DNA from: a virus | Reading direction: 5' to 3' (one strand) | DNA length: 64,000 bases | IMG/VR virus record: IMGVR_UViG_3300045988_174992 | Part shown: positions 3,688 to 56,100 of the stretch, in pieces | Layout of the letters: each line of letters begins with the position of its first letter | Position numbering within the stretch: position 1 is the first letter of the stretch | Position numbers and translations under genes: made by a program | The notes under the pieces: model-generated | Databases searched by the model: none | Told to the model about the DNA's origin: nothing | The model's input: the letters and a program-made list of their open reading frames with translations, nothing else

Positions 3688-3719
3688 ATAATATAGAAAA
3701 AGTGCATAAAATTTCAAAA
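3688..3719 (-). promoter_or_regulatory. Bacteroides-type -33/-7 promoter (phage promoter family)
   Basis: Minus strand reads TTTTGAAATTTTATGCACTTTTTCTATATTATT. Confidence 0.5.
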
Positions 3720-4612: not shown

Positions 4613-5656
4613 TTAAATTAGATTTTGTTCTACATGCTTTAATCGTTTAGAAACTTCATCTTGTTTACCTTCATTCATATTGGAAACATCAGTACTAAGG
4701 TAACCAGTGACCATTCTTAGTTCCTCTATGTTATGGCTTCCACAATGTGGGCATGTTCCATTGAAATCACCTTTGCTATGACAATCTCGGCAGTAATCCA
4801 GTGGAAAATGCAAAGAGAAATATGGAAGATCCTTATCCATTGCATAAACCACTAATTCTTCACAAGCATCTATATTGTTAGTTGCTGAACTTGGCATTTC
4901 AACATAAGTGATGCATCCAGCATTACTGAACTTATCTAATTCACTTTCAATATCAATTTTCTTGAAGCAATCAATATCTTTATATACAGGTACATGAGTT
5001 GAATTTGTAAAGAATTTGTTATCATTATCAGTAACACCTTTAACATCATTACCATATTGTGCTCTGAATTTTGTCATTGCTGTCTTACAAAGTGATTCTC
5101 CTGGAGTCAAATATACTCCAAAATTCAACTTATCATTTTTCTTGAATTCTGCACATCTGTCATTGAATAGCTTTTCAATTCTCTTTCCAAGTTCAAGTCC
5201 TTGAGCTTCTGTCTGGTCACACCCAATCAATATTTGCAATGTTTCTGCTAATCCAATTTGTCCGATAGCTAATGTACCATGTTTCATAGCAGATACAGGA
5301 CCTTCTTCATGGATATATCCTACCATTGTATTGTTTGTCCACATGAATGGAGCAGACTTAGAATTCTGGCTGCAAATCAAAGTAAATCTTTCAAGAAGCA
5401 TTTCTCTTGCTTCATGGATCTTCTTATCAAGCAACTTCATGAATGTTTCTACTACATCTTTGCTACCAGATTCTTTTGCCATCATAGCTAAAGTAGGCAT
5501 AATGATAGTAACAGGGCAAATGTTTCCACGACCATCTTTTTGGTTTGCAGATAACATCCAATTGTCTTGTACTTTACCAGTTTCTGCTATCTTTTTAAAT
5601 ATTTCAAAGAAATAATTTGAATCACAATTGATATCATAACCATTATAAGTTCTACA
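4613..5656 (-). CDS. nrdD: anaerobic ribonucleoside-triphosphate reductase, exon 2
   Basis: Starts CRTYNG... The C-terminus has the Zn ribbon CRDC...CPHCGS and the glycyl-radical motif ELRMVTGYLS. Confidence 0.85.
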   Translation of the reverse strand, partial: CRTYNGYDINCDSNYFFEIFKKIAETGKVQDNWMLSANQKDGRGNICPVTIIMPTLAMMAKESGSKDVVETFMKLLDKKIHEAREMLLERFTLICSQNSKSAPFMWTNNTMVGYIHEEGPVSAMKHGTLAIGQIGLAETLQILIGCDQTEAQGLELGKRIEKLFNDRCAEFKKNDKLNFGVYLTPGESLCKTAMTKFRAQYGNDVKGVTDNDNKFFTNSTHVPVYKDIDCFKKIDIESELDKFSNAGCITYVEMPSSATNNIDACEELVVYAMDKDLPYFSLHFPLDYCRDCHSKGDFNGTCPHCGSHNIEELRMVTGYLSTDVSNMNEGKQDEVSKRLKHVEQNLI

Positions 5657-5953
5657 CATCTTATCTGTTATTACTAACAGGACTGACTATATGTTCCTTA
5701 TTATATAAATTGTATTTTCTATATATTAAGGCCTCACGCTCCGAATTGGTGCTTATCTCCAATTCTACTCCCTTACACTCATCAGGGATAGTCGATACAC
5801 CTTTATGACAATTAAAATTGTCAATTTAGCACGGATCTCATCCATCTATTATAAATGGACCTAACCGTTAGCAGCAGCTTATTTATTTTCTTATGCTGCC
5901 ACACCCATTAAGCATGGTTCGAGAGGTTTTAGATGGGCTGTAGTATTGCACTT
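5657..5953 (-). mobile_element. group I self-splicing intron (ORF-less, 297 nt) inside nrdD
   Basis: The conserved NrdD peptide STMG|CRTY is split here. The 5' exon end GAUGGGU (5960-5954) pairs with an internal guide GCCCAUC (5938-5932), giving a U-G wobble at the splice site. The intron ends in G before TGT. A GUAA-tetraloop hairpin lies at 5665-5680. The region is richer in GC than its surroundings. Confidence 0.85.
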
Positions 5954-7408
5954 ACCCATCGTGCTCATCACTTCATATCTAGTGAATTTCTCTGCTGGTT
6001 TTACTTTAATTTCCCAACTATCTTCAATAGAGTCATAATGACCTTCTAATGACAAATAATCTTCATAATCTGGATGTTCTGACAACCATTTAGCAAATGC
6101 ACAGTATGTTGATTTGGAGAAATTGAGCAAATTCTTCAATGCACGATTCTTTTGCTCTCTATCAAATATATTACCTTTCCAGTTAGTACTCCAATCAACA
6201 TTACAATAATTAGGATAATCACGTTGTGTTGTAGATTTCAATGCTAATCTGAACAAATCATAGTTAGGACCAGGATTATTTTTAGAGCCATGAATTTCTT
6301 TACTGTATTGGAATATGCAACATGGGAATATAGCAGTACGATGATACTTACCAGTACCTTCCAATGTCATATTGATTAATGCTCTAATTATTTCACGACC
6401 TTCCTTTAAAGTACATGTACCATAATTGATGCTAGAAAATGGCAGCTGGGCACCACTACGAGATTGCAAACTATTTAGATTATGACTCATTGCTTCAGTA
6501 GCTTGACTTAATTCCTTCAATGTAGAATTCCAAGCCTTCTTCCATATCATTTTCTTCAATGGTTTCAACAATCCAACACCGGTATAAATTCTATCATCAA
6601 CACTTATATGTTTGATTGATTTAGGATCAATGTTAGGTTTAGCCCACTTCATCAATGGAATTCCATCACACCAGTTTTTGTAATGCTTAAAGAAACTCTT
6701 ACGGAAATATGGTATCATTGACCAATCAAGATGTGATGCAGAAATACCACCAAACTGTTCAAGTGATTGTACTTGGAAATTTACAGCTATCAATTGGAAT
6801 GCCGTACTTAATGAATTAGCAGGACGAATATCACACTGTTTCAATGTAATACCATGTTCAAGAAGAATATCAATCGGATCAGTTAAACAATTATGCTGTC
6901 CAACTGCAAAATTTGATAAATCATGCTGATAAACCATATTTCCTTCATGATTCTTTCTTGCCATCTTCGACATGTTGTTTTTCAAAGCATAATCTTTACA
7001 AACAACTGCTCCAGCTTCACCAATACGGCCACTAAAGCTGTTTTCATCAAGATTGGCATTCTGGTTTACTACATTCTTGGCATAAAGTTTTGTAGCAATA
7101 TTCTTAGCAAGCTTTGTATTTGATTCTCGATACCTAGATCTCTCTTCTCGGTAAATGATGAATTGTTCTGCTGCTTCATTCTCTCCTACCGACATGAGGA
7201 AATCTCTCAAGAAATCTTGTACAGTCTCAATATCAACTACATCTTCTTTCATAGTTTCTAACCAAGCTCTTATTGATTCTGTAAACTTACTAATTAGTCC
7301 ATCAGGAACTTCTTTCTTCACTCCATTCTTATATACTTTTTCAAGTGCATGAATTGGTTTGTTAAGATCAAAGCCTTGGACTTTACCATCTCTTTTCTTT
7401 ACTTTCAT
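5954..7408 (-). CDS. nrdD: anaerobic ribonucleoside-triphosphate reductase, exon 1
   Basis: ATP-cone N-terminus (MKVKKRDGKVQGFDLNK...). The track ORF reads 20 codons into the intron before a stop. The exon ends ...YEVMSTMG. Confidence 0.85.
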
Positions 7409-10090: not shown

Positions 10091-10124
10091 ATATAAGATA
10101 GAAAAATCTTGACTGATTTCAAAA
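10091..10124 (-). promoter_or_regulatory. Bacteroides-type -33/-7 promoter (phage promoter family)
   Basis: Minus strand reads TTTTGAAATCAGTCAAGATTTTTCTATCTTATAT. Confidence 0.45.
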
Positions 10125-10136
10125 TTTTATTTAAAT

Positions 10137-10236
10137 AAAAAGTCACACAGGGATGTTAAATCTATTTCAGGTATATAAATATACTCCTAAACAATTTTCC
10201 GCTCCCTGTGTGACCTAGGCGCTTTCCTAGAGAACA
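10137..10236 (-). repeat. GC-rich structured intergenic element, copy 1 of 3 (terminator-like)
   Basis: Starts right after the TGA of gene 10237-10740. It has a small hairpin CTAGG/CCTAG (10215-10230), a 12-bp long-range stem GTCACACAGGGA/TCCCTGTGTGAC (10142-10153 with 10203-10214), and then a U-run on the minus strand. Confidence 0.7.
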
Positions 10237-10740
10237 TCATTTTCTCTTCTTTGGTTGTAATTTTCTATTAACAGGTTTATAAGTACAATTTGTCTTCATC
10301 TTCTTAAGCATTGCAACTTCAACACGTAAGGTCTTTACTTCTTTCATTAATGCAACATTGTCATTATGCAATGAATTGAGTTTAGAAAGTACAACTCTGA
10401 AATTAGCTTTTACAATAGAATCAGAACTCATGCTATTGTGATTGTCATTATTAGTAATGACTGTGGTAATGTTGTTCAGTTTCTTTACACTACATCTACA
10501 GTTAGGATCATGAACAACAAAACTTTCAGTATTGTCATTCTCATCAGATTTTACAATATTGATGAACTTATGGTTTTGATAGTCAAATTCCATCACTTTA
10601 CCTTCTGATGTCAAGGTATCACCTACTATGGCAATATCATTTGATTTACCAGTACATTTGTTGACAACAAGCATGCTTCCTGTAAGAAACAATACAAATG
10701 TTATAGCTGCTATAATAATACTTTTAATATTCACTTTCAT
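10237..10740 (-). CDS. membrane-anchored coiled-coil protein (167 aa; possible spanin-like lysis accessory)
   Basis: N-terminal TM helix (IIIAAITFVLFLTGSMLVV), a C-terminal heptad-like region and a basic tail. It lies directly downstream of the endolysin. Confidence 0.4.
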   Translation of the reverse strand: MKVNIKSIIIAAITFVLFLTGSMLVVNKCTGKSNDIAIVGDTLTSEGKVMEFDYQNHKFINIVKSDENDNTESFVVHDPNCRCSVKKLNNITTVITNNDNHNSMSSDSIVKANFRVVLSKLNSLHNDNVALMKEVKTLRVEVAMLKKMKTNCTYKPVNRKLQPKKRK

Positions 10741-12558: not shown

Positions 12559-12588
12559 AAATATAGAACAAATGTAAAAAATTTCAAA
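12559..12588 (-). promoter_or_regulatory. Bacteroides-type -33/-7 promoter (phage promoter family)
   Basis: Minus strand reads TTTGAAATTTTTTACATTTGTTCTATATTT. Confidence 0.5.
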
Positions 12589-14202: not shown

Positions 14203-14241
14203 AATTTTACTTTTAAATATTTTGATTAAATTTACTTGTTA

Positions 14242-14263
14242 AAATGTGTGTTGCAACACATTT
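14242..14263 (-). promoter_or_regulatory. 5'-leader hairpin of the SSB gene (possible translational operator)
   Basis: 8-bp palindrome AAATGTGT/ACACATTT. It is followed, toward the ATG at 14202, by about 39 nt of almost pure A/U. Confidence 0.35.
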
Positions 14264-14286
14264 GTTTTATTTTATATCTTACATTT

Positions 14287-14320
14287 ATAATATAGTCAAC
14301 CAATATTATGATTTTCAAAA
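14287..14320 (-). promoter_or_regulatory. Bacteroides-type -33/-7 promoter for the SSB gene
   Basis: Minus strand reads TTTTGAAAATCATAATATTGGTTGACTATATTAT. It overlaps the 3' end of the upstream endonuclease gene. Confidence 0.45.
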
Positions 14321-16587: not shown

Positions 16588-16619
16588 ATAATATAGAACA
16601 ATCTTTAAATATTTCAAAA
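16588..16619 (-). promoter_or_regulatory. Bacteroides-type -33/-7 promoter (phage promoter family)
   Basis: Minus strand reads TTTTGAAATATTTAAAGATTGTTCTATATTAT. Confidence 0.5.
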
Positions 16620-19156: not shown

Positions 19157-19186
19157 AAATATAGAATTTCTTTCTTAAATTTCAAT
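19157..19186 (-). promoter_or_regulatory. Bacteroides-type -33/-7 promoter (phage promoter family)
   Basis: Minus strand reads ATTGAAATTTAAGAAAGAAATTCTATATTT. Confidence 0.4.
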
Positions 19187-21281: not shown

Positions 21282-21312
21282 ATAATATAGAACTAATCAA
21301 GAATATTTCAAA
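21282..21312 (-). promoter_or_regulatory. Bacteroides-type -33/-7 promoter (phage promoter family)
   Basis: Minus strand reads TTTGAAATATTCTTGATTAGTTCTATATTAT. Confidence 0.5.
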
Positions 21313-28880: not shown

Positions 28881-28910
28881 TAATATAGAATCTTTATAGA
28901 AAATTTCAAT
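28881..28910 (-). promoter_or_regulatory. Bacteroides-type -33/-7 promoter (phage promoter family)
   Basis: Minus strand reads ATTGAAATTTTCTATAAAGATTCTATATTA. Confidence 0.4.
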
Positions 28911-29267: not shown

Positions 29268-30341
29268 TTGAAAATGAAGTACAATGGAACAAACTACATT
29301 ACTGAACTGAAATCTATAGAATATATAGTAGAGAAGAACAGTAACAGTAAAGTAGAAAATCATACACAATTTACTAAGCTTAAGAAAGTAGAAAGAATAA
29401 TATTGATAGGTGAACTTTACTTGAATTCAGTAAAGATGCTTAAGAGAGATAAGATAAAAGTAGAATATGCAGATCCAACTAAGCTCAATTTTTCTTTCAA
29501 AGATGATAAGGTACATATATACAGTGGAGAGAAAGATTTACCTGATATAGTACTTACTAAAGCAGATTCTAAGAATACCATAGTATTGATGCGTAGTGGA
29601 TATACTAAGGAAGTGATAGCAGCTTTACTTGATGCCATCCAAGAATTAGATATACTGATATTGAACAACCAAGAAGCAGTAGCTATGTCATCTGACAAAT
29701 ATGCAACTGCATGTTTCTTGACAAAATCAGAACTTCCACAGCCAAAGTATGTACTTGCAACTTCTAGTGATATAGATAAAGAAGATCATAAGAAGCTAGA
29801 TGAAAAGCTAAAGCAACTCTATGGTAAGCTGGATGACGAATTAAAGTATGTTTGCAAGATATTGAATGGTCATGGTGGTAAAGGTGTATTTTGCTGTCGC
29901 GGAAAAAACATTGTATCTATATTGCAATGTTTGTTCAAACTGAAAGAAAACTGCCCTATACTCATACAAGACTTTCAAGAAATAAAAGATGGTGATATCA
30001 GAGCTCATGTACTTACATTGAATGGAAAGCAAAAGATATTGTCTTCTATCATGAGAAAGAAGGGAAAGGATTTCCGAACTAATCTCAGTCTTGGGTGTGA
30101 TATGGAAGATAATTACAAGATGACTCCAGAACAAGAAAAACTAGCTTTAGATGCTGCTAAAGCATCTGGATTGGAATGGTGTGGTGTAGATATGCTGCCA
30201 TTACAGAATGGAAATACTATAATAGTAGAATTGAATGGTGCACCAGGACCAAGTTCACCTATCAATGATCCTAACATAGAAGAAAATAATTTTAAGTTCT
30301 TCGAAAAGCTAGTAGAAGCTATAAATGAACTTTGTAAATAA
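29268..30341 (+). CDS. RimK-family ATP-grasp ligase (paralog 1)
   Basis: KILNGHGGKGVFCC, IQDFQEIKDGDIRAHVL, DFRTNLSLGC and GVDMLPLQNGNTIIVELNGAPG match the RimK pattern (GS.G.GV, iQeyi...g.DiR, fRsN...GG, GVD......V.EvN.sPG). Confidence 0.8.
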   Translation: MKMKYNGTNYITELKSIEYIVEKNSNSKVENHTQFTKLKKVERIILIGELYLNSVKMLKRDKIKVEYADPTKLNFSFKDDKVHIYSGEKDLPDIVLTKADSKNTIVLMRSGYTKEVIAALLDAIQELDILILNNQEAVAMSSDKYATACFLTKSELPQPKYVLATSSDIDKEDHKKLDEKLKQLYGKLDDELKYVCKILNGHGGKGVFCCRGKNIVSILQCLFKLKENCPILIQDFQEIKDGDIRAHVLTLNGKQKILSSIMRKKGKDFRTNLSLGCDMEDNYKMTPEQEKLALDAAKASGLEWCGVDMLPLQNGNTIIVELNGAPGPSSPINDPNIEENNFKFFEKLVEAINELCK

Positions 30342-32091
30342 AATGGAAAAGGAATATAAGAATATAGAAAATGCAAACATAAATGAAGCAATGGCGCTTC
30401 TGAAAAATGATACCAAGTTAGAGATAAAGAATGTAATATGCTTCTATGTTGGAGAAAATAAAGTAAAGAGCTATGATGAGGCAGTAAAAGAAAAAGAAGA
30501 AGATTGGTCTTATCAAGACTATTTGACTATTTGCTGTCATAAGAGAAAGCTGAATCTTGTATGGTTGAATAAAGCTACGGTACGATTTACCTATTCTAAT
30601 CATATCATATCTATAGATGATGATATAACAGATATGCATTTCTCATTGAAGCATTCTAATATTCATGATACTATCATATTTCAAGGTCAGGCCAATGATG
30701 ACAATAAGAAAAACTATATTGGATTGATGAGAGCATTTGAATATGAAGGTTTCTTCATGCTGAATACTATAGATGAAATCATCATAGCATCTGACAAGTA
30801 TCTTGCATCTAACTTGCTAGCCAAAGAGAATATTCCACAACCTGGATATGTATTGATAACAAAAGAATTGATGGAAGACTTGAATACTGAATGCCATGAT
30901 ACTAGAGAAAGTTTCTGGAAGATGCTTGATTCTATTTATAAAGATAATGAGAACATAAATGAACTGAAAGAAAACAGGCAATATGTAGTAAAGATATTGA
31001 ATGGCAGTCTTGGTATTGGTGTATTCATTTGTAATCATGATGAAATAGAAGGAATACTGCAAGCAATGTTTACTGTTGACAAAGAAGCAGAATTCATCAT
31101 ACAAGAATATAAAGAGAATACTGGAGACATTCGTGTACATGCATTTTCTGTTGATGGTGCCAATTATGAGATACTTGCTTGCATGAAACGTGATAAGATA
31201 AGTGGTGACTTCAGAAGCAATGTTTCATTAGGAGCTAAGACTGAAGAATATCAGATGACAGACAAACAAAAAGAAATTGCATTGAAGGTCGCTAAGCTTT
31301 CTGGATGCAGATGGGTTGGTATTGACTTGATGGCTTGTACTGATGGAGACTTTGTTATAGAATACAATTCAAGTCCTGGTGTTCAAGGAATATCCCAACA
31401 AATCAAGCATAACATGTTTGATATTGTGATAGATAAGATAGAAGCATACATGAAGAATAATGCTATATATTATACTGATGACTTTGAATTTGGTCAAGAC
31501 AAAGGCAGATGCTTTACATCATACAATAAAGACACTATTCTTGAACTTTGGGAGCATGATTGGTCATTCATATCTAGCAAGAGACAAGAAGTAATGTACA
31601 ACTGCTTACTTATGCAACCAGGTCTTTTCTATAAGATACATGGTAAAGACAAACCAGAATATGGATTAGATTGCTCTGGATACATCAAATATGTAATGAA
31701 GAAGGCATTGAATGTAAAGACACCTAACATGTGTGTTGACTTCTTCACTATATTTACTGATAATGATTGGGAAAGAATATCTGTTGATGATCTTAAGCCT
31801 GGTGATATAGGTGTAAAGAATGAATCTACTATATTGAATCACTGTGGTATATATGCAGGTGCAGGAAAATGGTTTGATACTTCTTATCTTTATGGAGTAC
31901 AATTATCTGACTATTCACACTTCAAATACTTCTTTAGAATAAAGAATATAGATACTGATGCTTTGGGAGAAAAGACTGATCATTTAGTAAGAAAACTCAT
32001 TTCTTCTGGTGTATTGCCAAGACCAGAAGATGAAATAACTGTTGCTCCATCCACTATTGGTGACCCATTAGTAGTATCAATAGATTCATAG
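30325..32091 (+). CDS. RimK-family ATP-grasp ligase (paralog 2) fused to a C-terminal NlpC/P60 cysteine peptidase
   Basis: ATP-grasp blocks: KILNGSLGIGVFIC, IIQEYKENTGDIRVHAF, DFRSNVSLGA and GIDLMACTDGDFVIEYNSSPG. NlpC/P60 blocks: YGLDCSGYIKYVM...LKPGDIG...NHCGIYAG. The start may be the ATG at 30343. Confidence 0.8.
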   Translation: MNFVNKMEKEYKNIENANINEAMALLKNDTKLEIKNVICFYVGENKVKSYDEAVKEKEEDWSYQDYLTICCHKRKLNLVWLNKATVRFTYSNHIISIDDDITDMHFSLKHSNIHDTIIFQGQANDDNKKNYIGLMRAFEYEGFFMLNTIDEIIIASDKYLASNLLAKENIPQPGYVLITKELMEDLNTECHDTRESFWKMLDSIYKDNENINELKENRQYVVKILNGSLGIGVFICNHDEIEGILQAMFTVDKEAEFIIQEYKENTGDIRVHAFSVDGANYEILACMKRDKISGDFRSNVSLGAKTEEYQMTDKQKEIALKVAKLSGCRWVGIDLMACTDGDFVIEYNSSPGVQGISQQIKHNMFDIVIDKIEAYMKNNAIYYTDDFEFGQDKGRCFTSYNKDTILELWEHDWSFISSKRQEVMYNCLLMQPGLFYKIHGKDKPEYGLDCSGYIKYVMKKALNVKTPNMCVDFFTIFTDNDWERISVDDLKPGDIGVKNESTILNHCGIYAGAGKWFDTSYLYGVQLSDYSHFKYFFRIKNIDTDALGEKTDHLVRKLISSGVLPRPEDEITVAPSTIGDPLVVSIDS

Positions 32092-32128
32092 ATTCACTAG
32101 GAAAGTACCTAGAATGTTTAGGAAGTGG

Positions 32129-32170
32129 AAAATGCTTCAGACTTAAGTCTGAAGCATTTTTTGTTTTTTT
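32129..32170 (+). terminator. strong rho-independent terminator
   Basis: 14-bp stem AAAATGCTTCAGAC-TTAA-GTCTGAAGCATTTT followed by TTGTTTTTTT. Confidence 0.85.
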
Positions 32171-32233
32171 CTAGTTAACTCTTAAAAGATATTCAATTGA
32201 TGATATTTTTACTTAAGCATATATCTAACTTAC

Positions 32234-39804: not shown

Positions 39805-39840
39805 CTTTTATTAACAATTAATTAAATAATTTAACATAAG

Positions 39841-39884
39841 TGTTGTCTATTTTCTTTTATAAGAAGAATTTAGACAACATTTTG
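39841..39884 (+). terminator. hairpin followed by a T-run after the AAA+ gene
   Basis: TGTTGTCTA...TAGACAACA (9-bp stem with an internal sub-stem) followed by TTTTG. Confidence 0.5.
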
Positions 39885-39934
39885 TATATTGATAAAATGC
39901 ATACTATTTTTAATAAACTTACAGAACATTAAGA

Positions 39935-44299: not shown

Positions 44300-44320
44300 G
44301 ATATAAAATAATATAAAAGA

Positions 44321-44359
44321 AAAGAGAACTTTCAATTGAAGGTTCTCTTTTTTGTTTTT
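44321..44359. terminator. bidirectional rho-independent terminator
   Basis: AGAGAAC...GTTCTCT stem, flanked by A-rich sequence on one side and T-rich (TTTTTTGTTTTT) on the other. Confidence 0.75.
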
Positions 44360-44376: not shown

Positions 44377-44470
44377 TTGTGTCAGGGACGTTGAAATTGT
44401 CTTAGCTGATAGAATATACTGAAGCATATTTTTCCGCTCCCTGTGTGACCCAGGCGCCATCCTGGAGAAT
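44377..44470 (-). repeat. GC-rich structured intergenic element, copy 2 of 3 (degenerate distal arm)
   Basis: Starts directly after the TAA of gene 44471-44845. The core TCCGCTCCCTGTGTGACCCAGGCGC lies at 44433-44457. The small hairpin is CCAGG/CCTGG (44450-44465). Confidence 0.65.
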
Positions 44471-44845
44471 TTATAGACAATCTCGTAAATCATTAAAGAA
44501 TTCTGTAACAAAAATACCTGCATCATCAAGATCATCCTTAAAAGAATATATGATAGAACGATTTGTCAATGCTGGATCATGTGAAACTAGATAAATAGGA
44601 CATTCCTTAATAGGATACATTTCTACTGTTCCATCTGTAAAACATACACCATAGATTCTTTCTGACTTATCACCTAACAAATTATATAGCTTTTGCAAAT
44701 CTTCTGGTGTAGTTATCTCAAAAATATCCTTTAGCAAATCAATCTTGATAGTAGTATTACGACTATGATAACCTGTACCATACCATAAAATTGCTTGCAA
44801 TACCAATTCTAGATTGAACTTATCTAATTCTGTACAATTCTTCAT
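44471..44845 (-). CDS. hypothetical protein (124 aa)
   Basis: ORF in the gene train. Confidence 0.55.
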   Translation of the reverse strand: MKNCTELDKFNLELVLQAILWYGTGYHSRNTTIKIDLLKDIFEITTPEDLQKLYNLLGDKSERIYGVCFTDGTVEMYPIKECPIYLVSHDPALTNRSIIYSFKDDLDDAGIFVTEFFNDLRDCL

Positions 44846-45150: not shown

Positions 45151-45180
45151 GAATATAGAACTTTTATTATTTATTTCAAA
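45151..45180 (-). promoter_or_regulatory. Bacteroides-type -33/-7 promoter (phage promoter family)
   Basis: Minus strand reads TTTGAAATAAATAATAAAAGTTCTATATTC. Confidence 0.5.
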
Positions 45181-50941: not shown

Positions 50942-50959
50942 GTTATTAAGATAGAAACA

Positions 50960-51574
50960 TTATCGATTCTTTTCAAACCAATCCATTGCATATTTTGCCA
51001 TTCCTTCACTGTCGCAAACATCGTCGATTTTTGGTAAATCAAAATCTGGAAATGAACCTTTGAATGTTGAAATCATCAATTGCTTATTTGCATTTCCAGA
51101 TCCTGTGTAAAACCTTTTTACTTCAGCAGGTGGTGTTACAAGAAGAGTACCAACAACAGTATGATGATGCAATCTGTCTCTTATCAGATAGTTCAATCCA
51201 GCAAGATCCATTACTGCAGCACTATGAATGGAACCATAAGATATTCCTTCCATACATATTGTTACTGAGTCAATAGTACTAGTTTTTCTGAATTGCTGTA
51301 ACAATTCTTCTATAATATTATATATTGTGTCTGCAATTGTTGACAAGTTGTGTGCTTTTGCTAGCTCACGTTCATGTGCATTATTTGTATCTTTTACATT
51401 TTCTTTTTGATATAAACAATATTCAAAAATTTCGGAATTATTTGATTGGGCATTCTTTTCTTTCTTTGTAAGCTTATCTCCTTTTATTATGAAAAATCTA
51501 CAGAAACCAGTATCAGTTCTTATTGTCATACCAGTACTGTTGATTGATGGATCAATTCCTATAAAAACATTCAT
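50960..51574 (-). CDS. RuvC-like Holliday junction resolvase
   Basis: VFIGIDPSINSTGM (first catalytic Asp), ICMEGISYG (Glu), and C-terminal DDVCDSEGMAKYA (Asp pair). Confidence 0.65.
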   Translation of the reverse strand: MNVFIGIDPSINSTGMTIRTDTGFCRFFIIKGDKLTKKEKNAQSNNSEIFEYCLYQKENVKDTNNAHERELAKAHNLSTIADTIYNIIEELLQQFRKTSTIDSVTICMEGISYGSIHSAAVMDLAGLNYLIRDRLHHHTVVGTLLVTPPAEVKRFYTGSGNANKQLMISTFKGSFPDFDLPKIDDVCDSEGMAKYAMDWFEKNR

Positions 51575-52064: not shown

Positions 52065-52096
52065 ATATGATAGAAATTAGTTTAGAAAATTTCAAA
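52065..52096 (-). promoter_or_regulatory. Bacteroides-type -33/-7 promoter (phage promoter family)
   Basis: Minus strand reads TTTTGAAATTTTCTAAACTAATTTCTATCATAT. Confidence 0.45.
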
Positions 52097-52105
52097 AAAT
52101 ATAAT

Positions 52106-52224
52106 AAAAGTCACACAGGGACGTTTACAATATAGCAGGTTATAAATTATACTTGTAAACAACTATCCGCTCCCTGTGTGACCCAGGCGCTTAACAGGAG
52201 AACCCTGTGTATACCTAGTGAATA
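52106..52224 (-). repeat. GC-rich structured intergenic element, copy 3 of 3 (best-formed)
   Basis: Starts directly after the TGA of gene 52225-53079. It has an outer 12-bp stem (52110-52121 with 52171-52182), an inner 8-bp stem GTTTACAA/TTGTAAAC (52123-52130 with 52153-52160), an extra hairpin ACAGG/CCTGT (52194-52208), and a U-run on the minus strand. Confidence 0.7.
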
Positions 52225-53079
52225 TCATTGTTCTATTGGTGAACCATCATAATCAATATATGTTTTAGAATTGTCAAATGGTCCACAATCATCATTTAAT
52301 TTTGGATCATGATTCAAATCAAGATTATCTGTTGTATTGCCATTTACTGATATACTAGAATAAGGGTAATTCTTAAATCCAGTATCTTCTTTCTTTTTAA
52401 TGATTATGCTTTCTTCTATAGGTTTGTCAAATGGTTGTTCTTCTTCAAATCTGTTGTTAGTATCTGTTTGAATGAATTGGTAGTCAAAGTTAGAATACTT
52501 AAATACACATCTGAATGTAGCAGATTGTGCCAATGTCTGGGTATAGTCAAATTGCAACATATCTACCCCATCTATAACTGGATGATCTAATACAATTCTA
52601 GAATAAACACAGCCATTTTCATTTAAAAGATCAACATTAAAGCTATAGTCAAGATTCTTATCTAAATTTTCTGTATCTCTACAATATTGATAGCAAAAAC
52701 TTTCAAACAATAAAAAATAGTTTACATATCCTAAAGTATGTCTGAAATCTATGTTCAATGTATGGTCAACTAATGCAGCTGGACTAGCAACGCTTCTGTA
52801 ATTTACATCACTAGCACCACCTTGCATCCAATTTTGTTCAGTTCTTCCTGGAAGCCTTACTGGGTTACCGTGATTAGTTTGCTGTTGTGCAACAGTACCA
52901 GATGAGAATCCAAGTACTTCTACTTTCTGTATTGTCTCATTCAAGAATTCTATTGGTTTTGTTATGAAACTATGAGAATCTTTCAGTATCTTAGTGTATT
53001 TTTCTTGTATCTCATCTGGAATGAATTCATCTGGCAATATCAATCTGAATCCATCTCTATTTCCTGATAATGAAAACAT
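52225..53079 (-). CDS. tail-tube-family protein (T4 gp19/gp48/gp54-like) downstream of the tape measure gene
   Basis: Supported by its position, its N-terminus MFSLSGNRDGFRLILPDEF, and a C-terminal ATFRCVFKYSNFDY resembling the TFEVTLALDYW end of T4 tube-family proteins (from memory). Confidence 0.4.
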   Translation of the reverse strand: MFSLSGNRDGFRLILPDEFIPDEIQEKYTKILKDSHSFITKPIEFLNETIQKVEVLGFSSGTVAQQQTNHGNPVRLPGRTEQNWMQGGASDVNYRSVASPAALVDHTLNIDFRHTLGYVNYFLLFESFCYQYCRDTENLDKNLDYSFNVDLLNENGCVYSRIVLDHPVIDGVDMLQFDYTQTLAQSATFRCVFKYSNFDYQFIQTDTNNRFEEEQPFDKPIEESIIIKKKEDTGFKNYPYSSISVNGNTTDNLDLNHDPKLNDDCGPFDNSKTYIDYDGSPIEQ

Positions 53080-53100: not shown

Positions 53101-56100
53101 TTATTCGGTAGATTGTGTTTTACTATTTAATGGATTATCTCCTGCTGGTGTTTCATCTCTTTCAGCACTATTTTGACCATTACCTGTAGAAGTATCACTA
53201 TATTGCATATTTGGATTTTCTGTATCTTGAACTTGCTTTACATTTACTTCTACTGGTTTGTTCAACAATGTACTGATCTTAGAAATAGAATCCTTTATAG
53301 CAGCATGACGTTTCTTTTGCATCTCATCAGCTTGATTTATAGTCTTAGCAGATATCTTAAGCTCTCTTACAAGCTTATCCAATACAACAGCTAGCTTATT
53401 TGCTAAAGTATTTGTTAATTTGTCAAGACCACCTAATCTTCTAGCCATTTGATCTAAAGCAGTTATCAAGTTAGTCATAGTTTGTGCTTTTGCCACATCT
53501 AAAGTATTTATAGATCTAGTAAACTTAGATACATCTTGAGTTTCTGTTCTGAACTGTGATGTATTCTTTACTTTACTTATTTCTACATTTATACCTTTTA
53601 CGGCATTTATTACATTGTCATATTTAGAAGTATCCTTTGGAGCTTTATCATAAACATCAAACAACATCTTCATTCCATTATAATAATCCACCATCATAGG
53701 TCCAAACATCAATATGTTCTTAGATAAACCTTTAGAATCCAAATTAACAAATGTCTCTGATATTCCTCTGACCATCTCTTTAGGTATGTCAGAGAGTGAT
53801 ATCACTATGCTTGCAGCATTGGCTTTAGTCTCTTTCTCTAACTTCTGTTTGAATTTAATTATCTTCTTATAAGATTTTATAGCATCATTCAGTATATCAG
53901 TATATATATCAAACTGGTTTTGTATAGAAGAAAATTCATCATCTTTCAAATTAGGCATCTTCTGAATAGCTCTAGACATGCTAAATGGAAGTTGTGTTAA
54001 AACAGCATCTACTATCTTATTTAATCCATGTATATCATCTTCCTTTCCAAATTTAGATTTTAATTTAAATATGTCACTATAAGAAGATACTATGTTATTC
54101 AAAAGCTCAGTATAAGAACTATAGCTAGAAGATATCTTCTCAATGTTATCTTTTGCATCTTCAAAGAATGGTTTGAGTTCTTCTTGATTCTCATCCATTG
54201 TTGCTTTCATTACAGCATTAGGAACAGAACTTATCATTAAAGAGATAATAGCTGAAAGATTATTCATCTTAGGTTTATCCAACTTTAAGTCAAGTATAGA
54301 TTTTATAGATTTTATATTTTCTGCAATTAATTTATCTAAACCACCTAAACAGTTCTTTACCTTAGCAAATGGACTAGTACTTCCATCATGATTAAGCCAT
54401 CCAGAATCTTCAAACCAAACTTTATTATGTGGATCATCATATACAGCCATTACAGCTGCTGGTATGCAAGACATCAAAGCTGTTACGTTATTATATACAG
54501 TTCCTCCAAGTCTTAATGATTCTATTGGTATTTTTTCATATTGACCTTTAAGAAGCTTTCCATTTGAATCATACTTTTGTATTCTTAAATCAGCCACATC
54601 TTTCACACCTTTAGCGGTTTCAGACATTAATGATCCAATTCCCTTCAATGCTGTAACTATTTGCGAAAATCTAGAACAAGTTCCGTCTTTAAACACAATA
54701 GATTGATCTTCAAACATCCACTCAGCATTAGGATTGTCTTTAAGAGCCAGAATAGAATTTCCAAGACATGACACTATACGTTGAGTATTTTCTGCAGCAT
54801 TCTTGAAATCCTTAAAACCAAGTGGTCTTGTTCCTTTCTGTTTTCCATCAGCTCCATATATAGGTATTCTTAAGTCAGCCATATCTTTGACACCTTTAGC
54901 TATATTAGATATCATTTTTCCTAAGCCTGTACAACCAGTAACAATACGACCAAATGGAGTTTTTACTCCTATCATATTTCCAAGCCAACCACTATCAAAC
55001 ATTCCTTCAGGAGCTTTATTATATAAATCTAATAATGCATATCCTAAGGTTGTAACAATTTTAGATATATTTTCAGCTGCATTAGTAAAATCAGGTTCTG
55101 TTAAATTACGATATCCTACTTTGTCTGTTCCTTTATAAATAGGTATCTTTAACTCTGCCATATCTTTAACACCTTCTGCTATCTTAGCAATCATCTTACC
55201 CATTCCAGTACATGATTTCACTACTCTAGTGAATGGTGTGTCCATACCTAAGAAGTCTCCAAGCATTCCATTAGAGAATATGGTAGGATTTTCTTTGTAT
55301 ATATCTAAGATAGTTCCACCTATTATAGTAACAATAGTTTTTATATTCTCTGCAGCATCTGTGAAATCAGCATCTGTCAAATTTCTTCTTCTTATTATCT
55401 TTCCTCCTTCTCCATATATAGGTATAGAAAGATTAGCATAGTCTTTAATTCCTTCTGATAACATAGACATCATGTGTCCTAAACTAGCAATAGTTCCAGA
55501 TGCAGCAACTATCATCATATCAAGCAATGGATTCATAAATGGTTTGAGTTCCCAAACTATGCTTAGCATGGCTTTAATATCATCTGTTATAATAGAAGTG
55601 TCAACTCTTTCAAGCTTAGAAGCCATATCCATTACCTTTATTATCTCTTGCATGGCTTTTCCTGCTAATAAGACGCATCCAATGATTCCAGCTAAAGCGG
55701 CTTCACCAGCCGCTAAAGCCAAACCTCCTAAACCACCAGTTCCAGCTGATAGATATCCAAGACCTATTACTCCACCAGCAAATGCCAATAGTACTGCTAT
55801 TGTAATTCCTATAGTACCCAATAGTCCACCCCAGTCACTTCCTATATTATCTCGGAGTTTTACTATCTCCATCATTGCATATCCTGACAATCCAATACAT
55901 ACAATAACTCCTAATAAAGCTAAAGCCCCCGTTTTAAGGTTTCTTTTTACCTTGCTGAGCATTCCTAGTATGAACGACATTCCACCTACTAGCAAGAGTT
56001 CTAAACCTAAGAACTTTAGTATGTTGATATCTAAGTCTGGGTAGTTCATCAATAACATTCCACCGGTAAGCAATGCTATAGAAGAGACTAATACTAAAGC

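Follow-up and report, generated by a model that had tools for sequence, protein, structure and literature searches.

The DNA analysed here, a 64,000-nt window from the IMG/VR virus record IMGVR_UViG_3300045988_174992, carries on its minus strand three copies of a GC-rich, hairpin-forming element of about 100 nt (copies 1-3, numbered on window coordinates), a new type of long-hairpin module that is present in multiple copies at the ends of operons and is specific to one clade of uncultivated gut jumbo phages. In its general layout, each copy comprises a small 5' hairpin (P1), a GC-rich long-range stem of 11-12 bp (P2) around an AT-rich, partly paired interior, and usually a T-run. We give about even chances to the reading that the element is a portable, one-directional long-hairpin terminator or 3'-end RNA module whose copies are homogenised by recombination, with actual termination and the RNA 3' ends being what we infer from the sequence.

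The minus strand of the window contains exactly three matches to the 18-mer GGTCACACAGGGAGCGGA, at 10198-10215, 44433-44450 and 52166-52183, and the plus strand none; dinucleotide shuffles contained no match even when up to three mismatches were allowed, so that a chance origin is not expected. Across the 25-mer GCGCCT(A/G)GGTCACACAGGGAGCGGA, alignment of the three sites gave 24/25 identity between copies, which bears out the shared core at three intergenic sites described in the initial annotation. Copy 1 starts 2 nt past the TGA at 10237-10239, copy 2 starts 1 nt past the TAA at 44471-44473 and copy 3 starts 2 nt past the TGA at 52225-52227, the distance at other copies read being 1-14 nt. 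The three upstream minus-strand open reading frames (ORFs; 167 aa, 124 aa and a tube-like 284 aa) are mutually unrelated, and the closeness to stop codons of unrelated minus-strand genes claimed earlier holds, the distance being 1-2 nt. The copies, their parts and a decayed relative are as follows.

10133..10236, minus strand: copy 1, whole element, which starts 2 nt past the TGA of the 167-aa ORF and ends with the T-run
10215..10230, minus strand: copy 1, P1 hairpin CTAGG-AAAGCG-CCTAG, from sequence and fold
10198..10222, minus strand: copy 1, GC-rich core GCGCCTAGGTCACACAGGGAGCGGA, made up of the P1 3' strand, the P2 5' arm (10203-10214) and GCGGA
10142..10153, minus strand: copy 1, P2 3' arm TCCCTGTGTGAC, followed by the T-run at 10133-10141
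44377..44470, minus strand: copy 2, whole element, with P1 at 44450-44465 and the core at 44433-44457, downstream of the 124-aa ORF
52101..52224, minus strand: copy 3, whole element, with the core at 52166-52190, P2 arms at 52171-52182 and 52110-52121 and the T-run at 52101-52109
52194-52222, minus strand: copy 3, extra 5' modules TTCACTAGG / ACACAGGG-TTC-TCCTGT, from sequence
32090..32181, plus strand: decayed fourth relative, directly past the TAG of a plus-strand 588-aa ORF

Covariance-model scores were 106 bits for copy 1 (10140-10237) and 89.6 bits each for copies 2 and 3, and the model built from the 88-copy alignment described below found no match in the window beyond these copies and the decayed relic. 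The relic (29.3 bits, rough E about 1e-4) retains P1 (ATTCACTAGGAAAGTACCTAG) and a decayed core (..AGGAAGTGGAAAATG), followed by an ordinary terminator (GCTTCAGACTTAAGTCTGAAGC plus a T-run); its orthologue is present in L030, decayed further. The earlier count of three copies is correct for exact cores, and this plus-strand relative adds a fourth. Covariance-model searching also picked up members of the sister family described below, and Rfam gave no meaningful match. As a side observation, the relic sits just after two adjoining RimK-like ATP-grasp proteins (29268-32091, plus strand), the second of which also carries a fused NlpC/P60 peptidase domain.

In copies 1 and 2, P1 is a 5-bp hairpin (CTAGG/CCTAG and CCAGG/CCTGG), copy 3 has the same hairpin with an extra one inserted, and the pairing is maintained across copies through U-A/U-G/C-G changes. 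Copies 1 and 3 contain the 12-bp P2 stem GUCACACAGGGA/UCCCUGUGUGAC, which there runs straight into TTTTTATTT / TTTTATTAT, and only these two copies are followed by a T-run. The minimum free energy (MFE) fold of copy 1 reached -37.6 kcal/mol (z = -5.7 versus shuffles) and that of copy 3 had z = -4.05. In copy 2, merely 6 bp of P2 pair (CAGGGA/UCCCUG), the remnant 3' arm TCCCTG at 44383-44388 is followed by ACACAA without a T-run, and the fold is no better than shuffles (z = -1.3). The 5-bp hairpin, 12-bp stem and U-run predicted in the initial annotation were therefore reproduced for copies 1 and 3 (z of -5.7 and -4.1), while in copy 2 P2 is broken. P2 encloses about 50 nt, which itself folds into an extended hairpin; in the MFE folds, P2, P2a and P3 stack to about 30 bp, enough for the roughly 20 bp of imperfect double-stranded RNA that marks RNase III sites. 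In full-length folds, P1 together with P2 is far more stable than any alternative.

Loci were collected by exact core scans of viral, metagenome-assembled genome (MAG) and metagenome collections, which means that the core was required of every locus gathered in this way. IMG/VR yielded 37 loci, all on about 8 contigs of 167-294 kb from one sample, while 14 came from two 'uncultured Romboutsia' gut MAGs and 62 from human-gut metagenomes. The element was seen only in a single clade of uncultivated human-gut jumbo phages, with about 9-10 copies to a genome. A 294-kb genome carries about 8-9 exact cores, the copies group into about ten orthologous sites, and the 88 unique copies align nearly without gaps, with conserved blocks TTCNCC, RGCGCCTGGGTCACACAGGGAGCGGA, AGTATAWTY and ATTTTAACGTCCCTGTGTGA. 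Among GenBank phages there was no DNA match to the region or the element, and the nearest cultured phages, the jumbo phages Tenacibaculum PTm1 and Sphingomonas PAU, show about 27% protein identity. The Romboutsia contigs with the element (L147-L160; GTDB MAGs CALFLM01 and CALESE01, 'uncultured Romboutsia sp.') have flanks identical to those of phage contigs and are probably phage contigs misplaced in bins; this binning is the sole clue to a host, and no more than a hint.

Gene context across the family is strongly oriented. Of 42 first copies, 33 follow a same-strand gene, with an estimated start at most 60 nt from the stop and mostly within about 10 nt, and the other nine, from two sites, lie inverted between opposite-strand genes inside long co-directional gene arrays, as seen in ORF maps. 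The generalisation in the initial annotation that the element always begins at a same-strand stop codon consequently fails family-wide (9/42 inverted). Sense copies found only at operon ends, together with inverted copies inside operons, form the pattern expected of a selected one-directional terminator. Intact P2 was accompanied by at least 6 T in the 8 nt past the stem in 46 of the 88 unique copies; the broken-P2 types (GACACAA at site b, TAGTGAA at site f) have no T-run, and their downstream flanks contain separate hairpin terminators on sequence inspection. The 5' modules occur in tandem, with 1-3 units (L155, L164, L198, L199 and copy 3).

Graded relatives were gathered through homologues of the 284-aa tube-like protein, and the same genomic site was compared among them. 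At 79-98% protein identity the site holds the same element, with core variants at 79-81%, and a relative at 63% identity has the arms CCTAG/CTAGG and retains AGCGGA and TGTATATTTTATCAG. Relatives at 56-58% identity carry at this site a homologous multi-copy sister family, in which P1 reads CCAG-GAGTCG-CTGG, GCGAAAT forms the junction, GATATAAATTATAT is the loop of the apical hairpin, and P2 (CGCTGGCGGCC/GGCCGCCAGCG) is accompanied by ATTTTCAA followed by AAATTT or a T-run. Seven copies of the sister family lie in one 148-kb contig; 11 of 15 copies follow a same-strand gene, many are at convergent junctions and two are inverted. At 50-57% identity the site is occupied by unrelated perfect long hairpins of 17-20 bp or by ordinary terminators; the L248-type long hairpin is single-copy in its genome, so that the multi-copy habit is not general, and in relative L257 a long hairpin is followed by a separate terminator. 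The P2 arms of the present family (TCACACAGGGA/TCCCTGTGTGA) and of the sister family each pair at 11/11 positions, and 9 of the 11 pairs differ on both sides between the two families. A covariance model built from the present family alone found sister members at full length with 19-29 bits. Because of this full arm swap and the full-length detection across families, what has been kept over long evolutionary distance is an extended hairpin, its strong GC clamp and a small number of interior motifs, and not any particular stem sequence.

Predicted promoters and ordinary terminators were located around the copies.

10095..10122, minus strand: family promoter after copy 1, TTGAAA-16-TATCTT (form TTGAAAT-N12-TTCTAT), by motif family
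52067..52095, minus strand: family promoter after copy 3, TTGAAA-17-TATCAT, by motif family
44318..44353, both directions: ordinary bidirectional terminator hairpin, distinct from copy 2 and lying between it and the convergent gene of 426 aa, 16 pairs with T-runs on both sides
786-810, 1131-1155, 3693-3717, 10098-10122, 12563-12587, 16593-16617 and 19161-19185, minus strand: promoter family members, by motif match
21287-21311, 28885-28909, 45155-45179, 50951-50976, 52070-52095 and 53924-53949, minus strand: further promoter family members, by motif match

Against an expectation of 0.7, the motif family TTGAAA(T)-N12-13-(G)TTCTAT(A/C)TT has 13 members in the window, every one on the minus strand, and the predicted family promoters that the initial annotation placed directly after copies 1 and 3 are indeed there. 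Just 2 of the 13 members have the element upstream, and copy 2 has a convergent gene downstream instead of a promoter. Elsewhere in the window, other operon ends (39805-39934, plus strand; 14203-14295, minus strand) also show hairpins with long-range stems and AT-rich interiors, for example TGTTGTCTA..25 nt..TAGACAACA plus TTTTG, which suggests that long-loop terminators may be a habit of the source phage.

Placement at unit ends, the link between intact stem and T-run, and the terminators found at the same site in relatives fit the earlier proposal of an elaborated terminator or an RNA processing or stabilising module. Copies 1 and 3 combine a GC-rich hairpin with an immediate U-tract, which copy 2 lacks, and all three window copies lie at the end of a unit, before a promoter (copies 1 and 3) or a convergent gene (copy 2), the nine inverted copies of the family being the exception. 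Decayed relics hold an ordinary terminator in the place of P2. Three observations weakly favour action in the sense RNA rather than in DNA: the sense strand is predicted to fold more stably than the antisense strand in 67/88 and 10/14 copies, P2 mismatches are G-T (G-U) in 23 cases versus A-C in 6, and the T-run is on the sense side. Like intrinsic terminators, especially long or branched non-canonical ones, the element has a GC-rich stem base leading straight into a U-run, a unit-end position and one-directionality. Unlike them, it has an extra 5' hairpin and a stem that encloses about 50 nt in an extended imperfect hairpin instead of the usual loop of 3-8 nt, it is multi-copy with a near-identical 25-nt core and interior motifs, and some of its copies have no U-run.

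Under the terminator reading, transcription of the upstream gene would produce an RNA that folds into the small P1 and then into one long imperfect hairpin, whose base would be the 11-12 bp GC-rich P2 clamp with the U-run immediately after it. RNA polymerase would terminate there, leaving the message with a very stable 3' hairpin, and a phage promoter could then restart transcription. Inverted copies would not terminate in the direction of the local genes, and for that reason may be tolerated inside operons. The family may have spread in an ancestral jumbo-phage genome by duplication of a terminator cassette, sometimes together with its promoter, and frequent recombination or gene conversion would have kept the copies alike, which may be why the GC-rich core appears over-conserved.

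Several points weigh against this reading. A simple terminator scan calls no terminator at copies 1 and 3, their interiors being above its loop limit, and terminators of the short, ordinary kind are used at most of the other operon ends of the window, which does not explain a need for a 100-nt module at these sites. Interior motifs (GCGRAAA, RRTATAAATTATAW and AWTTTY) are conserved across families whose stems have been wholly replaced, which a terminator alone does not predict. The 5' arm GTCACAC at site b is intact across clades though its partner has been lost, and inverted copies keep the consensus core and the T-run in the element's own orientation. Arm swaps in a DNA palindrome can arise through template switching without selection on the RNA.

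The variation among copies bears on how the conserved core is to be understood. Its invariance is partly a sampling artefact, the copies having been gathered by requiring it: copies found through their flanks vary in the core (CACATAGGAAGCGGA, GGGAGCAGA and GGGAACGGA), and at the site after the tube-like gene, 4 of 8 genomes carry the core variants CAGTTGGCGGA, CGGTTGGCGGA and CAGTGAGCGGA. A truncated type consists of P1 and the core (CAGGAAGCGGA) followed by an ordinary terminator that replaces the interior and the 3' arm. Covariation of alignment columns within the family is uninformative, since the 5' arm was fixed by the collection method. About 15 alleles of the interior sequence were distinguished, and their distribution over the sites is shuffled: one allele spans 12 flank clusters and single sites hold up to four. 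Some loci, such as L207, fuse the upstream flank of one site with the downstream flank of another. The shuffling indicates gene conversion or recombination between copies. No empty site was found by flank-joining BLAST among more than 110 loci, every gap holding the element or a core variant. Given the shuffled alleles, the hybrid-flank loci and the absence of empty sites in that search, the copies are old, fixed and repeatedly exchanging sequence. Exchange alone can keep a shared core, and the conservation argument for a special ligand or for catalysis is therefore weaker. The initial annotation had argued that conservation beyond the needs of a terminator pointed to a protein-binding or catalytic RNA or to a DNA site, an argument that loses force with allele exchange, a variable core and the replacement of the stem in the sister family.

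A possible but doubtful alternative is a conditional terminator or cis-target of a clade-specific factor, in which a phage or host protein would recognise P1 and the GC-rich core in the RNA, or the stopping ribosome would sense them. Recognition would choose between the P2 terminator and a competing upstream pairing in which the 5' arm of P2 is sequestered, and read-through at about ten operon ends could be switched in this way during infection. RNAalifold picks a core-local hairpin that excludes P2 (G16-C37, C17-G36, which is U-G in 16 sequences, C19-G34, C20-G33, U21-G32 and G23-C30), and the 5' halves are predicted to fold stably (-9 to -18 kcal/mol in the present family, -16 to -23 in its sister), with alternatives that include GCCGCCAG:CUGGCGGC in the sister family and UCCCCUGU:ACAGGGA pairings. 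One stem sequence is common to all copies of the clade and another to the sister clade, the core at site b is retained where its P2 partner has been lost, and the start of the element near the stop (1-2 nt at the window copies, 1-14 nt at other copies read) would suit a ribosome-based signal. In its stronger form, conditional terminators would carry a clade-specific 'code', with either a co-evolving phage factor or the ribosome 1-2 nt upstream as the reader of P1 and core; we consider this rather unlikely, and a shared stem within each genome with a different one in the sister clade would follow from it. However, the predicted alternative hairpins are weak in the present family and change on one side only (C to U, giving U-G), the core variants GTTGG, GGTGG, GTGAG and GGAAG have no consistent compensation, and P1 plus P2 outcompete the alternatives in the full-length folds described above. 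Truncated copies have the core beside a non-overlapping terminator, gene conversion can account for the uniformity, and Pfam scans of 30 proteins of the window, which covers about a quarter of the genome, gave no candidate factor (CAT/PRD, ANTAR and the like). The element resembles RAT/antiterminator systems (BglG/SacY/LicT) and attenuators in that a conserved stretch of about 25-30 nt overlaps the terminator 5' arm and may form a predicted alternative hairpin; it differs in lying at gene 3' ends and not in 5' leaders, in the weakness of the alternative hairpin and in having no sequence similarity to them.

Processing is an unlikely alternative, in which the imperfect duplex of about 30-40 bp would be cut by host RNase III or another double-strand-specific nuclease; by analogy with known sites, the cut would separate cistrons and leave protective hairpins, termination being secondary. 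Cuts of this kind are made at the R-sites of T7 and, in the early mRNA of Bacillus phage SP82, at conserved Bs-RNase III sites, where they separate cistrons and leave protective hairpins. With those sites the element shares several sequence-conserved hairpins per phage genome, a position between cistrons, internal loops and putative stabilising 3' hairpins, and it differs from them in its U-runs and following promoters, longer hairpin and GC clamp. The long imperfect hairpin with internal loops suits a nuclease, as does the perfect pairing of GGGAGCGGAAAA with UUUUCCGCUCCC in some alleles, which yields one continuous duplex (L006:54-151, L181). A hairpin of this kind would also be functional in inverted copies inside co-directional operons, the sole Rfam noise is microRNA-precursor-like, that is, generic long hairpins, and the long hairpin of L257 precedes a separate terminator. 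Against this, the link between intact stem and T-run and the position before promoters indicate termination, and RNase III does not require the sequence conservation observed.

It is quite unlikely that the element is a DNA-level repeat, whether a selfish palindrome like miniature inverted-repeat transposable elements, ERIC or Correia repeats, a recombination 'boundary sequence' that favours module exchange, or a protein roadblock or operator placed in a set orientation at gene ends in the manner of stoperators. As such a repeat might, it occurs in both orientations as a multi-copy imperfect palindrome with an AT-rich centre, its alleles are shuffled between sites with hybrid-flank junctions (L207), its 5' modules are tandemly repeated 1-3 times, and antisense promoter-like hexamers lie inside it (TTGAAA-18-TATACT at 44391-44420 and TTTACA-18-TATACT at 52124-52153). 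The spacing of these hexamers nevertheless breaks in the sister family (TTGAAA-N12-TATAAT), which also led us to reject them as antisense promoters, and the sites are orthologously fixed down to 56% protein identity, none of the more than 110 loci being empty. Orientation is biased towards transcription with a linked T-run, P1 lies outside the P2 arms so that there are no terminal inverted repeats at the true ends, the aligned flanks show no target duplications, and no transposase or repressor was identified. Bacterial palindromic repeats (REP/BIME, ERIC, Correia of Neisseria and the pneumococcal BOX and RUP) are likewise imperfect palindromes of about 100 nt, multi-copy, intergenic near stops and present in both orientations; they are co-transcribed, fold into RNA hairpins and evolve in concert, and some are terminators or RNase III substrates. 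In contrast to them, the element lies in a phage genome at about 10 sites that are orthologously fixed, with strong orientation bias and without presence/absence polymorphism, terminal repeats at true ends or target duplications. In mycobacteriophage L5 and the Cluster A phages, the immunity repressor binds stoperators, which are DNA sites of 13 bp that form no hairpins; they resemble the element in the many copies of one asymmetric conserved sequence, in short gaps at gene ends and oriented to transcription, and differ from it in that the element is a 100-nt hairpin-forming unit.

A family of small RNA genes or ribozymes, discrete RNAs of about 100 nt derived from 3' untranslated regions or from their own promoters, whose core would act in trans (as seed or decoy) or self-cleave, is highly improbable. 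In its favour, bacterial small RNAs show a similar succession of a 5' hairpin, a conserved segment and a terminator, and at inverted site g a TATAAT precedes the element by 8 nt. Against it, that TATAAT overlaps the ribosome-binding region of the neighbouring gene, and at inverted site h no promoter call was convincing. The core is hidden within P2, the window contains no complementary target of at least 15/18 nt, and no Rfam family or ribozyme matched.

Searches for known identities agree with the earlier remark that the element could be matched to no familiar RNA family. Rfam at gathering thresholds gave no match to the element in the whole window, and when E-values up to 10 were admitted, copies 1 and 3 and one copy of the sister family drew only MALAT1, miRNA and snoRNA noise. 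The Rfam ribozyme models (hammerhead, twister, hairpin, HDV-like, pistol and hatchet) had no covariance-model match, which leaves the catalytic RNA suggested in the initial annotation without support, and ARAGORN called no tRNA or tmRNA genes in the window. Apparent likenesses to ribozymes (twister 'AAGCGCC/GGAG' and hairpin-ribozyme 'GUAUAUUAC') had no model support, and neither had a hammerhead-like 'GAUGA..GAAA' in the sister family, where GAATGCC variation breaks the box; the loose pattern GCGCC-N11-GGGAGCGGA retrieved random GC-rich matches only. A coding element was rejected on the grounds that read-through frames differ between copies and that an ATG-led frame of 21 codons in the sister family is missing from several copies. 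Strings like the motifs of integron attC sites (R'' RYYYAAC 5' and R' GTTRRRY 3') appear in some copies only and in the wrong order, and a K-turn at the junction of P2 and the interior would require G-A pairs that are absent. An embedded T4-type late promoter (TATAAATA) or sense promoter was dismissed, the commonest allele being without the motif and a scan finding none, and own promoters for the inverted copies were not convincing.

For a large group of uncultivated human-gut jumbo phages, the element offers a ready-made family of RNA or cis-elements without an Rfam counterpart, comprising two subfamilies with a full stem swap and conserved loop motifs. If the copies are plain terminators, they would mark operon boundaries and aid the annotation of transcription units in such genomes, and they also record frequent exchange between dispersed 100-nt repeats, and module exchange there. 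If a factor reads the elements, they would form a new genome-wide timing switch at terminators; and if the 'code' were real, about ten operon boundaries would open and close together in infection, as a terminator-side counterpart of phage-specific pairs of promoter and RNA polymerase.

Two further observations concern the surroundings of the element. In related genomes, a second small repeat lies beside many copies, comprising a AGTTCTTGAACAGAACT hairpin, often followed by GAAAGAGATGTTCATTA, and GTTCAAGAACTTAAGTTA (for example L023:10225-10260, L019:8060-8100 and L034:9150-9175); it is absent from the window. Within the window, nrdD, encoding the anaerobic ribonucleotide reductase, is divided between two ORFs (5891-7408 and 4613-5659), the first matching the ATP-cone and NRDD profile positions 2-251 and the second NRDD positions 271-562. 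The two ORFs are separated by a group I intron at 5664-5923 on the minus strand; the Rfam Intron_gpI match covers the full model length with E = 6e-6, and its 30.2 bits fall short of the gathering score of 50. This combination of split nrdD and group I intron matches that of the T4 nrdD (sunY) intron.

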